From the IMG/VR virus record IMGVR_UViG_2872185964_000010: a DNA stretch of 45,487 nucleotides; one strand, 5' to 3'. The position numbers are program-made. This stretch comes from a virus. Lineage: Duplodnaviria; Heunggongvirae; Uroviricota; Caudoviricetes. This document shows, in pieces, positions 24,001-30,000 of this stretch (position 1 is the first letter of the stretch; every line of letters starts with the position of its first letter).

Positions 24001-27000
24001 GCATCAGCAACCCGCATTCGTCTCGGTGCGCGAAGGATATAACCTGAATCGGTTCGTGCTGCCTTTGCGGTTTCCTGATTCAGCATTACTCCTCCTGCTG
24101 TAATTCCTCCTCATCATCCGCACCTGCTTCAGTCACCCGCAGGGCTATCTGATCGCGCAGATCATCAATAATGGACTGAACACGGCTCACAGCGGCAGGC
24201 TGCAGACCGCAGTCACGTTCCAGAATATCCGGTAATGTCTCCAGCACCTGCACGACCGCTTTTGCCCAGATGGCAAACTCCCGTCTGACATCACTGGCCG
24301 GAATGAGTTGTGCCGTTTCCTGTTCGAACTTAAGACGCTCACGTTCAGACTGATACCAGGCTTTGCGCTCATGCGCGTCCATTTCGCCTTCTGCAACCGG
24401 CGGTGGCAATGCCAGAAATGCCGACACAATATCAACCACCCGATAAAGCTTGAGGTTGCTTTCATGCCCCCCTGCAACGGGTAGATTTTGCAGCCTTGCC
24501 GCAGCAGTCTGGCGATGTACACCTGACAGTGCCGCCAGTTGACTGATATTCAGCGTCAGATTTTTTAACTCTCGATCCATACCCGCTCCAGAATGTTTTA
24601 AACATGCATCTTGCGAACAACTTTAGGCAAACGGTGTTAGTGATGAACAAAAAACAATCAAAATCGACACTGCAAAAATAAAAATACTGTAATATCAATC
24701 AATTACAGCAGTGGTGATGACGAATGAAATTTCAAAAACTAGCCTTTTTCCGCGACGCTCCCGCCCCGTGGCAGGCCACCCCACCGGGAGGACCCGTCAG
24801 CCTGACAGCCATGACGAACGTCTGATACAGCACCCTGCATGAATGGCATCGGGATAATCCAGAAAGGAATAGCATCGTACCCACAAGAATCTGTGTGAGT
24901 GTCCTGTTTCTTCCACCCCCGCACAGGACTGGCGAGCATGAGGGACAAACCCGCGAATCATTAGCGCGGTAAAAACCCGGTGTGCATCGTTTTTGATTAT
25001 TCCCGCACACTCTCGCAGAAGGAGTTCCCCGTCGGGCTACGGTCTCTGTTAATACGGGAATACGGCGACGATACAGCGCATGATGTGTCAGGCTTGAATA
25101 CCTTTATCCGTTAAAAGGGATATCAGTTAAGTTATCCCGTGTAGGGTATAAGCCATTATCAAAGCCACTCTGTAGGGAGTGGCTTTTGTAATGGCAATAA
25201 AAAGCCCCGCGAATACGAGGCTAAATCCTGGTATTTGTAATGACTGGCTCTTATCTCAACGCAGCCCCTTACCGCGCGCAAGATGCTCAATATCAAGCAT
25301 CAGCAATGAGATGTTTAATCTGGATTCACTCCAGAAGTGATCACCACCCTGTCTACAGAGCCAGATGTGAAGGATGATAAGTAAAATTATCGCTATCATC
25401 GAAGGCATTGCGTCCTGATGTATTCCTGAAGCGTTCTCAGTGCTGTTTGGTCGCTGATGATTCCGTCCCGGATACCGAGAACGTTTCGTCCAGCAACTGG
25501 AGAGAGTTCGACGGTGGCATCATTGCCCATGCCGGAGGCGCTGGAGGTTTCGGCTGAGGATGGCACAGGGCATTTTCCTTTGACGAACACCCGACCACCA
25601 TTATCAAGCTTGCGCCGAAGAGCATCATTTTCAGCTTTCGCATCAGCTAACTCCTTCGTGTATTTAGCATCGAGTGCATCAGCAGAACGCTGGCGCTGCT
25701 GCATGTCAGTATGAAGTGGCACACTGAATTTGGCCACCTGAACAGAGGTGATATGCTCACCTCAGAACAACACAGGTGCTCCAATGAAAAAAAGAAATTT
25801 TAGCGCAGAGTTTAAACGCGAATCCGCTCAACTGGTTGTTGACCAGAAATACACGGTGGCAGATGCCGCCAAAGCTATGGATGTTGGCCTTTCCACAATG
25901 ACAAGATGGGTCAAACAACTGCGTGATGAGCGTCAGGGCAAAACACCAAAAGCCTCTCCGATAACACCAGAACAAATCGAAATACGTAAGCTGAGGAAAA
26001 AGCTACAACGCATTGAAATGGAGAATGAAATATTAAAAAAGGCTACCGCGCTCTTGATGTCAGACTCCCTGAACTGTTCTCGATAATCGGGAAACTCAGA
26101 GCGCATTATCCTGTGGTCACACTCTGCCAAGTGTTCGGGGTTCATCGCAGCAGCTACAGATACTGGAAAAACCGTCCTGAAAAACCAGACGGCAGACGGG
26201 CTGTATTACGCAGTCAGGTACTTGAGCTACATGGCATCAGCCATGGTTCGGCCGGAGCAAGAAGCATCGCCACAATGGCAACCCGGAGAGGCTACCAGAT
26301 GGGACGCTGGCTTGCTGGCAGGCTCATGAAAGAGCTGGGGCTGGTCAGCTGTCAGCAGCCGACTCACCGGTATAAACGTGGTGGTCATGAACATGTTGCT
26401 ATCCCTAACTACCTTGAAAGGCAGTTCGCCGTGACCGAGCCAAATCAGGTGTGGTGCGGTGATGTGACCTGTATCTGGACGGGTAAGCGCTGGGCGTACC
26501 TCGCCGTTGTTCTCGACCTGTTCGCAAGAAAACCAGTGGGCTGGGCCATGTCGTTCTCGCCGGACAGCAGGCTCACCATGAAAGCGCTGGAAATGGCATG
26601 GGAAACCCGTGGTAAGCCCGGCGGGGTGATGTTCCACAGCGATCAGGGCAGTCATTATACGAGCAGGCAGTTCCGGCAGTTATTGTGGCGATACCAGATC
26701 AGACAGAGTATGAGCCGGCGCGGAAACTGCTGGGATAACAGCCCAATGGAACGCTTCTTCAGGAGTCTGAAGAACGAATGGATGCCGGTGGTGGGTTACG
26801 TAAGCTTCAGCGAGGCAGCTCACGCCATAACGGACTATATCGTTGGATATTACAGCGCACTAAGACCGCACGAATATAACGGTGGGTTACCCCCAAACGA
26901 ATCGGAAAATCGATACTGGAAAAACTCTAACTCGGTGGCCAGTTTTTGTTGACCACTTCAGTAATGGTGGCGGTCGCCTGCTTCAGCTCACTGACTTTTT

Positions 27001-30000
27001 TATCTCGCTGTTCTTTGTAGGCGATGGCGTTATCACGGTAATGATTGACCGCCCACGACAGGCAGACGATGATGCAGATAACCAGAGCGGAGATAATCGC
27101 GGTTACTCTGCTCATTGTTGCCCCCACAAACAGACTTCACGCTCAATCTCACGACGAGTCATCAGGCCTTTCCATTGCTTACCGCCAGCGTATGTCCAGC
27201 GACGTAGCTGGTCACATGCGCCTTTGATATCGCCCTGGTTTATTTTGCGAAGAAGCGTCGATGTTCTGAAATTGCCAGCACCCACGTTGTAGACGAACGA
27301 GTAAAGAGCGCCGCGCGTTGTTTCCGGTATATCGACTTTGATGTACGGGTTAATTTGTCTGGCGACCGTGGCAAGGTCTTTATTCAGGAGGGCTTTGCAT
27401 TCTGCTTTGGTATACGTTTTACCGAGCATGATGTCTTTTCCTGTATGCCCGTGACATACAGTCCATACACCAACAATATCTTTGTATGGTATGTAGCTGA
27501 CACCTTCCAGACCATCGTTACCACTTGGGCCAGTAATTAACACTGATGCTATAGCAATTGCTCCGCCACCAATAGCAGCAGCAACGGCTTTTCGTAATGA
27601 TGGAGGCATTATTCACCTCTCGCAGCCTTGCGCTTATCTTCTTTAATCTTGAAATAAAGGTTTGTCAGGTACGTCAGCAGGCCAAATACCAGGCTACCCA
27701 GCACACCTATTGCTGCCCACTGTGAGGGCGTGACTTTATCGAGCAGCTGTAAAAACCAGTAACCGGCACTACCTGCTGAGGTGCCATAGGCGACACCCGT
27801 TGTTAACTTATCCATGGATTTCATAACCCCACCTCGCAGATGCGGGTGCTGTGTAATGGAAATAAAAAGGCCACCTGCGTGGCCACCAGATTATTTCCCC
27901 ACCAGCTCGTTTATCTCTTTCACTGTCTGGTTAAACCGCTCTGACTCAAGCTCAACACCTAAGGCCCGACGCCCCAGCGCCATTGCTGCTTTTATTGTGG
28001 AACCGGATCCCATAAAAAAATCAGCAACCAGATCACCAGGTCGACTACTGGCATTGATTATTTGCCTGAGCATATCCGCCGGTTTCTCACACGGATGTTT
28101 ACCCGGGTAGAACTGAACGGGTTTATGCATCCAGACATCGGTATAAGGCACGGAGACTGATACGGAGAAATAGCGCCGGAGAGATTTAAACTCATCCAGC
28201 AATTCAGAATATTTGCGATTCAGTGAATCATAAGATGCCACCAGCTGGTGGTGTGGTTGTTCCAGTTGTTGTTCCTGAAACTTCTCTGCCGCTATACGGG
28301 AAAACAGTGCCTGTAACTTCCGATAGTCAGCCTCATTCGGCAACTGCCACTGACTGGCACCAAACCAGTGGGAAACCATATTTTTCTTACCTGTGGCTTC
28401 GGCAATTTGTTTTGCCGTTATACCCAGTTCGGCACGAGCATCCCTGAAATACGATATCAGCGGTGCCATTATGTGCTGTTTGAGTGCCCTTTCTTTTGCC
28501 GCATAGCCGTCACTTTTGCCGCGATATGGCCCCTGGTAATGTTCAGCAAACAGAACGCGCTCTGTGGCAGGAAAATATGCGCGCAGACTTTCTTTATTAC
28601 ACCCATTCCAACGTCCGGACGGCTTCGCCCAGATGATATGGTTAAGCACGTTGAAACGTTCACGCATCATGATCTCAATATCAGATGCCAGGCGATGCCC
28701 ACAGAACAGGTAAAGGCTTCCGGCAGGTTTTAACACCCGCCAGAACTGGGCCAGACAGTGGTCCAGCCACTTAAGGTAATCTTCATCCCCTTTCCACTGA
28801 TTGTCCCAACCGTTGGGTTTCACCTTGAAGTAAGGCGGATCGGTAACAATCAGGTCAATGGAATCATCAGGCAGGGACTGAATAAAATGCAGGCAATCAG
28901 CGTTGATTAAATCAACACTGTTTATTTTTACAGTATTTTTCATGGATCAGTAAGCGTAACTCTGGTAGGCTCACTCTGCTTTTGCGCTAAAGCAGTGGGC
29001 CGTGGTTCGCTTGTGACCAGTAAGCATGAGCGAATGGCTGGCAGGTGCTACCAACACCCACCAGCCGCCCATTTTCACAGCAGGAAACCGCCATTACTGG
29101 CAGCGTCTGAATTTATTCCCGTACCCGCCGTTATCCTTCGCCAGACCCGCCAGAACTAACTGAGTCAGTATTAACTGGCACTGGGCTTCGCTTACTCCGG
29201 TAGTTCTCGTCATCATGCGTGGCGTTACCCACTTGTCAGCAGGTAAGAAATGAAGGACTGCGGCGGCGGTTTCTGTCATATCTTGCTGTTTTATCATGTC
29301 TTTTTCCCTTCTGGTTAACATGACATACCAATAACTCTTGTCTAAAAAGCCAGCAAGATAAAAAGTCAGTATTCACGACCACCAGCGTGTTTACTGTACT
29401 GCACCAAGTTTACAGGTACAAAAAACCCGCTCAGTGGCGGGTTGCTATCACAGCTATATATTTACTTATTATGCCGTTACTAACATTTATCTTCGACATA
29501 TAATCGAAAACAAGGTTTACTTAAAACTCTGCTTTCATTTTATCCGGGAATTTTTTATTTGCAGCATAATAACTACCAAGTACATAAGCGTTCATTTGCT
29601 GCTCTACATCAACCCGACATGCCGCACTAGAACAAGCTCCACTGATAAGCCCAAAAGAACTCCCTTTAGCAGAGAGATCAGCTTTGATTTCCTCTACAGT
29701 GTTTTTCCCCATAGCAACTACACACCCTGTCACAATATATCTAGCCTTCACATCATCCATGCTAAGGATAGTAGTTTTCGCAATTTTGCTGTATCCATCA
29801 TTTTTATAAACATCCATGGCAAACGCACGGCAATCTGTATAATACGGACTTGCTTTAACTTGCGAATACTCAGGTAATTTCATACCTGCACAACCAACTA
29901 AACAAAAACCTATCGCTGCTATTAATACCTTTTTCATTACAGTCATAACCTAGAAGCATCATTGAAACTAATTTATTAAATAATCATCGAGTTTCTGGAA

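Follow-up and report, generated by a model that had tools for sequence, protein, structure and literature searches.

The question raised by the locus described here is whether a phage lysis gene that is split by a mobile element has really been inactivated by transposition, and what such a split would mean for the prophage that carries it. The DNA concerned is one strand, given 5' to 3', of 45,487 nucleotides from a virus of the Caudoviricetes (Duplodnaviria; Heunggongvirae; Uroviricota), held as IMG/VR record IMGVR_UViG_2872185964_000010; this whole stretch is referred to as the window, and positions are counted from its first letter. The gene is Rz, which encodes the i-spanin of the lysis cassette, and the element is the insertion sequence (IS) IS911. 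It is our view, held with a probability of roughly 0.9, that the locus records a genuine and probably recent transposition of IS911 into Rz of a lambdoid prophage of Shigella, with consequences for lysis that can be expected from better studied phages. The element and the gene are both already known, such events are routine in Shigella, and the outcome is an ordinary gene knockout.

Rz lies on the minus strand, where its frame opens with an ATG at 27115 and runs to ...ACC ATT AC|T, the final T being the first base of the IS, and is taken up again beyond the element as TAC|TGAC ATG CAG CAG CGC..., with a protein that reads ...ATATIT / DMQQRQ.... IS911 interrupts the gene after nucleotide 155, between T52 and D53, and the two halves are now 1252 base pairs (bp) apart. 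The 3' part, comprising codons 53-155 and the stop and including one copy of the trinucleotide GTA (25396-25711, minus strand; PF03245), is in frame with the 5' part at 26964-27115. From the original start codon the DNA now encodes a truncated open reading frame (ORF) of 62 amino acids (aa) at 26927-27115 (minus strand), already called as a gene in the source record, in which residues 1-52 of Rz are followed by 10 residues encoded by the IS; this stub, with its stop at 26927, keeps the membrane anchor at the N-terminus together with the first half of the coiled-coil CC1. As it stands, Rz is not one continuous protein with an anchor and a periplasmic domain, and the C-terminal piece has neither an anchor nor a signal of its own. 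The split gene is, as judged from its reading frames, a disrupted member of PF03245 and hence a pseudogene.

The evidence that a transposition event produced this arrangement comes from the flanks of the element and from what is recovered when it is removed. GTA stands on both sides of the IS, at 25709-25711 on the left and at 26961-26963 on the right, as read from the sequence and with no strand assigned to either copy. Deletion in silico of 25712-26963, that is, of the IS together with one GTA, yields an uninterrupted Rz ORF of 468 nucleotides and 155 codons, which matches the Pfam profile PF03245, 'Rz lysis protein', over profile positions 1-125 of 126 (E = 6e-29, 101 bits against a cut-off of 25.4) and is identical at 468/468 nucleotides to the intact 'lysis protein' gene WP_001442864.1 of Escherichia coli C-SRM-3. 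Along its whole length the restored protein shares 61% identity with lambda Rz; the insertion corresponds to T52/D53 of the lambda protein, inside CC1, and the two cysteines at positions 98 and 153, which in lambda make intermolecular disulfides, are conserved. The chance of a 3-bp repeat taken alone is 1/64, and it is the exact restoration of a known Rz gene that puts the insertion far beyond chance. The insertion of IS911 into Rz is confirmed as genuine. The first-pass annotation had placed a complete IS911 with a GTA target duplication inside Rz, between the codons for ATATIT and DMQQRQ, and this is borne out by the two GTA copies and the restored 468-nucleotide ORF; the interval it gave, 25396-27115, is correct for the whole split Rz including the IS, and not for the IS itself, which occupies 25712-26960.

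The element at 25712-26960 is 1249 bp long, lies on the plus strand and is transcribed opposite to the lysis genes. Its left inverted repeat (IRL, 25712-25738, plus strand) starts TGAAGTGGCACACTG and its right inverted repeat (IRR, 26934-26960, plus strand), with which it pairs, terminates GTTGACCACTTCA; a repeat search finds 27-nucleotide arms that are 74% complementary. The repeats are thus imperfect and of the TG...CA type, with outer ends TGAAGTGG / CCACTTCA. Between them lie orfA (25784-26086, plus strand), which encodes a 100-aa protein with an HTH_Tnp_1 domain (Pfam PF01527, E = 5e-14), and the orfB frame (26032-26952, plus strand), open from an ATT codon to its stop and carrying the rve / DDE core (PF00665, E = 1.5e-31; PF13683). 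OrfB is in the -1 frame, and a shift at the slippery A AAA AAG (A6G) site for programmed -1 frameshifting at 26035-26041 (plus strand, read from the sequence), where orfA would pass into orfB, gives a stop-free OrfAB of 389 aa, the length of the annotated WP_086020965.1-type product. The window copy aligns without gaps, end to end and at the same length, with RefSeq copies annotated as 'IS3-like element IS911 family transposase', at 99.8% identity over 1249/1249 nucleotides. By this comparison the element is confirmed as IS911, complete with both ends.

IS911 is a member of the IS3 family that moves by copy-out-paste-in transposition and was first described in Shigella, and the window copy shares with it the repeats, the orfA/orfB frameshift, the rve core and the 3-bp duplication. 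Its typical target duplication is 3 bp. The 3-bp GTA duplication fits the IS3 family, in which direct repeats of about 2-4 bp accompany IS3, IS150 and IS911 (PMC3299598). Nothing of substance differs in the window copy, the comparison being with RefSeq-annotated copies. Two other descriptions of the element were considered and rejected. One is that 1249 bp represents a truncated IS, to which the gapless alignment with annotated E. coli copies of the same length is the answer. The other starts from a comparison with the copy in E. coli O121 201805972, from which the window IS911 differs at 2 nucleotides, such that OrfAB has L98 and C230 here and Q98 and Y230 there; the Y230C change, near the first catalytic Asp, might have been a private substitution that disables the transposase. 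The exact 217-aa C-terminal OrfB product with C230 is, in fact, found at many separate loci in other assemblies (for example CP026807.1 and PTES01000002.1), and the multicopy state of this allele elsewhere marks it as an expanded allele of those genomes, not a private defective copy.

How widely the occupied and the empty sites are distributed bears on the age of the event. An exact-match search of about 15 billion proteins places the 62-aa junction protein on one contig only, CP026872.1 of GCA_002950295.1, which is 4.71 Mb long. The occupied junction is absent from 5426 complete E. coli genomes, and the junction 33-mer was not found in GTDB species representatives or in JGI metagenomes; two apparent E. 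coli matches to the junction, in O121 201805972 and in CUPF12, proved to be different events. The empty site, by comparison, is contiguous in at least 1150 of the same 5426 genomes, the best at 99.4% identity, and also in the isolated phages Ayreon (98.5%), vB_EcoS-569R4 (97.4%) and PhiR70_1 (96.1%); Ayreon and similar phages with the empty site are viable. A search for strains with the empty site had been put forward as a check on the insertion, and these genomes and phages supply it. In related genomes the prophage is flanked by prfC and yjjG. GCF_002950295.1 is counted among Shigella genomes in one paper (PMC12679885), although the accession in the table of that paper is another one, GCF_002950395.1 (S. 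sonnei ATCC), and the prophage is taken here to belong to a Shigella chromosome. Because the restored Rz has no substitution relative to the intact allele and the junction occurs in a single assembly, the insertion is probably both strain-restricted and recent. Of the two possibilities raised by the first-pass annotation, a recent insertion is better supported than a long-standing crippling of the prophage.

The other genes of the lysis cassette were said in the same annotation to be intact, and the holin, the endolysin and the embedded Rz1 are each a complete ORF with the expected Pfam match. Rz1, the o-spanin lipoprotein, is encoded within Rz in the +1 frame (25437-25643, minus strand; 68 aa; PF06085, E = 3.8e-21, 75 bits against a cut-off of 27.9). 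It has a VVGC lipobox and a PPAPPAW motif in its proline-rich part, is 47% identical to lambda Rz1, and occurs as the exact protein on 486 other contigs; the gene keeps its AAGGAG Shine-Dalgarno sequence and begins, read along its own strand, 68 nucleotides past the IS. The resemblance to the lambda Rz/Rz1 spanin therefore extends to the N-terminal membrane anchor of Rz, its two cysteines, and an Rz1 nested within Rz in the +1 frame, complete with lipobox and proline-rich core. The difference is that Rz is continuous in lambda, whereas in the window it is split by 1252 bp and Rz1 is the one complete gene of the pair.

Upstream on the gene strand, the intact endolysin gene (27112-27609, minus strand; 165 aa; PF00959, E = 1.3e-45) is of the R21/RrrD type, and its stop codon overlaps the start of Rz in the sequence ATGA. 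The protein has 2 aa differences from RrrD of E. coli C-SRM-3, rrrD being also the annotation in relatives. Its N-terminus is Gly/Ala-rich and resembles a signal-anchor-release (SAR) segment, and E35, D44 and T50, which we take to be the catalytic triad, are present. The intact class II holin gene of the S21/EssD type (27609-27824, minus strand; 71 aa, with a dual start at M1/M4; PF04971, E = 2e-35) is identical in nucleotide sequence to essD of E. coli C-SRM-3. The cassette as a whole is like that of phage 21 and DLP12 (EssD, RrrD, RzpD/RzoD) in the 'P21 holin S' Pfam match, the order of the genes and the overlapping start and stop codons, and RefSeq uses the names essD and rrrD on near-identical E. 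coli loci. Pinholin and SAR (membrane-release) behaviour of the phage 21 type is predicted here from family membership and from the N-terminal sequence.

What the loss of Rz would do is best approached through the phages in which the spanins have been studied. Nonsense mutations across the periplasmic domain of lambda Rz cause a lysis defect at positions as far along as residue 152 (PMC5295617), and spanins are required both in the lambda pathway and in that of phage 21, which relies on a pinholin and a SAR endolysin (PMC6139136). Spanin knockouts convert cells into fragile spheres bounded by the outer membrane, which rupture in shaken flasks and do not lyse if that membrane is stabilised by divalent cations at millimolar concentrations (PMC6139136). 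The stub in the window, whose Rz sequence ends with residue 52, is missing half of CC1, the whole of CC2 and the C-terminal part through which Rz contacts Rz1, and it should for that reason be a null allele. The expectation in the first-pass annotation that loss of the i-spanin would impair disruption of the outer membrane is supported. The sequence of events that we propose begins with the transposition of an IS911 copy into Rz of a lambdoid prophage with a phage 21/DLP12-type lysis cassette, an insertion that left the 3-bp duplication. The cell would from then on make only the 62-aa stub, with no periplasmic C-terminal domain, and Rz and Rz1 could no longer bridge the periplasm. After induction, death of the cell and loss of its wall would still follow from the action of holin and endolysin while the outer membrane stayed whole, and the outcome, by extension from lambda and phage 21, would be fragile spheres from which virions are freed only by shear or at low concentrations of divalent cations.

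The insertion may also bear on transcription of the genes that follow. As the IS is opposite in orientation to the late operon, about 1.28 kb of RNA that is not translated, with 1.25 kb of antisense IS RNA in it, now precedes Rz1 and the morphogenesis genes, and the late transcript would reach Rz1 and the terminase, head and tail genes only if Q-modified RNA polymerase reads through the element. Such read-through is expected from the biology of lambdoid late operons, and a Q gene of the Antiterm family is present upstream. A scan of the IS, on the strand of the lysis genes, for strong intrinsic terminators returned only two weak terminator-like sites, and the regional count of 5 lies within about 1.5 standard deviations of the mean of 2.6 in shuffled sequence. 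A hybrid promoter formed from the outward -35 element (TTGACC) in IRR was considered and rejected, the flank having no suitable -10; the only promoter-like match, at 27045, is below chance expectation. A separate feature of the presumed late operon is a strong terminator-like hairpin at 27869-27884 (minus strand; GGCCACGCAGGTGGCC followed by a T-run), located between a DNA methyltransferase gene and the holin gene, with a loop one base shorter than in a close E. coli relative (L001). Antitermination would be needed for late transcription to pass this hairpin.

Several points weigh against the view that a recent transposition has disarmed the lysis pathway of an otherwise functional prophage. 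For the Rz junctions the support is their own internal consistency. The count of one assembly comes from exact-match look-ups, which miss copies with a single substitution, copies with other gene calls, and copies in short-read assemblies, which are broken where an IS lies. The lysis and release defect is read across from lambda and phage 21, and spanins could come in trans from further lambdoid prophages resident in the cell, E. coli genomes having a median of 2 places that match the cassette query. Finally, set against the close E. coli relatives L001 and L002, the window lacks a single base at about 22 places in G/C runs, and if these losses are real the prophage is already dead and the insertion in Rz is without consequence.

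This last point leads to the alternative that survives best, although we consider it unlikely: the insertion would be real but irrelevant, the prophage being an old cryptic remnant with multiple frameshifts and a second IS, in which the loss of Rz changes nothing. In its favour, a break at 23457 divides the gene of the terminase large subunit, those for the portal, the capsid fusion, the tape measure and gpJ are each split relative to L002, and an IS629-like element occupies 41488-42797 within a DUF551 gene. The pattern of the deletions argues the other way. G/C runs of at least 5 bases are one base shorter than in the relatives in 17 of 40 cases, whereas none of the 150 A/T runs of that length is affected, and every change is a deletion (for example at 6658, 8350, 9290, 14181, 18665, 19020, 21191, 21806, 23457, 32707, 33917, 35134, 36404 and 37007). 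Being one-sided and specific to composition, the deletions bear the signature of sequencing error, and without polishing the frameshifts cannot be read as pseudogenes; the deletions look like systematic long-read consensus error and not like gene decay, and they account for the apparent frameshifts in the genes for the terminase large subunit, portal, capsid fusion, tape measure and gpJ and in the KilA-N genes. The prophage is, moreover, free of large deletions, its genes stand in full order from the integrase to the tail fibre, and the lysis genes themselves are without decay. Two further differences from the relatives could be real. One is a one-base deletion at 12242, outside any homopolymer (CCACC to CCCC) and close to where the gene for the tape measure ends at its 3' side, and the other is a segment of the tail-fibre gene stfR at 3296-4020 that cannot be aligned to L002 and is about 460 bp shorter.

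It might also be supposed that the inactivation of Rz was selected, loss of the outer-membrane step being favoured in Shigella and enteroinvasive E. coli (EIEC), for example by limiting phage release or by altering what induced cells release, with IS insertions in lysis cassettes a recurrent result; we regard this as highly improbable. If it were true, such prophages would kill induced cells and retain virions and periplasmic contents in outer-membrane spheres until these met shear or low cation concentrations. Independent insertions in lambdoid lysis cassettes are indeed found. In E. coli O121 201805972 (NZ_CP119441.1, 3023263-3025178) IS911 abuts a 5'-truncated Rz and the endolysin gene is absent, and this loss, together with the lack of a target duplication (the flanks are ACG / GCT), suggests a deletion or recombination mediated by the IS; in E. 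coli CUPF12 (NZ_CP182159.1) ISEc52 splits rrrD; and in CP026807.1 (2160679-2165332), from the same accession series as the window's contig, a P21-type holin gene lies between two IS911 copies. The positions of insertion in all three differ from that in the window, which is a simple insertion with its duplication intact. Such cases are, however, expected by chance where chromosomes carry many IS and genomes several lambdoid prophages: IS911 belongs to a set of five IS that have expanded in every Shigella species, each chromosome carrying 229-348 IS (PMC7373316), and random insertion predicts 0.02-0.035 insertions per 468-bp target per genome. The same 45-kb prophage has, within an early gene of the DUF551 family, a second element of the IS3 family, 1310 bp long and IS629/IS1203-like (41488-42797, plus strand; 96-98% identical to E. 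coli copies), with inverted repeats beginning TGAACCGCCCCGGG... and a GTC/GTC 3-bp duplication; an Rfam ALIL frameshift pseudoknot is located within it at 41823-41939. The insertion in Rz is, furthermore, confined to one assembly, and a spanin null does not rescue the induced cell, for which holin and endolysin are still lethal (PMC6139136). As no benefit to the host is obvious under these circumstances, neutral collateral damage is favoured over selection, and the event is best understood as a by-product of the expansion of IS in Shigella and not as an adaptation.

The least probable alternative is that the assembly is at fault and that a misjoin or collapse of IS911 copies has placed the IS in an Rz that is intact in the true chromosome, for although IS911 is multicopy in such genomes and base-level imperfections are visible in the assembly, a misjoin would link the flanks of different IS copies, while the IS here is flanked by the two neighbouring parts of a single gene, its 3-bp duplication is clean and its removal restores a known allele exactly and in frame, and the errors seen are 1-bp homopolymer deletions of the long-read consensus type, long reads being normally able to span an IS of 1.25 kb, all of which makes a chimera very unlikely.

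The wider significance of a genuine and probably recent insertion of this kind is small. Provided that it is otherwise intact, the prophage should be conditionally defective in lysis and release, which matters for experiments on induction or phage yield with this strain. For annotation, the Rz fragments should be treated as one pseudogene interrupted by an IS, and Rz1, which is easily missed, deserves to be annotated. The more useful practical point concerns the systematic error of deletion in G/C homopolymers, in view of which frameshifted 'pseudogenes' in the assembly should not be taken at face value, whereas IS insertions are structurally self-validating.

A few other features of the window are recorded here in their own right. 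At the end of the prophage that adjoins prfC, positions 25-1629 (plus strand) encode a fusion of a reverse transcriptase (RT) with a TIR domain, identified by PADLOC as RT-TIR_XII (retron type XII; E = 4e-187) and annotated in relatives as 'TIR domain-containing anti-phage reverse transcriptase'; the non-coding RNA expected upstream of it would fall outside the window. At 35960-36187 (minus strand) there are Rfam matches to the C4 antisense RNA (35999-36086) and to isrK (36111-36187). Differences from L001 in this region cluster in four short repeated motifs, which are of the TTGATC type in the window and of the GTATGC type in L001, and these could be co-varying sites of immunity specificity in a P1-like C4/ant module. 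A match to the Rfam small-RNA family IS009 (223 bits) lies at 2117-2315 (minus strand), inside the region of the tail-fibre-assembly gene.

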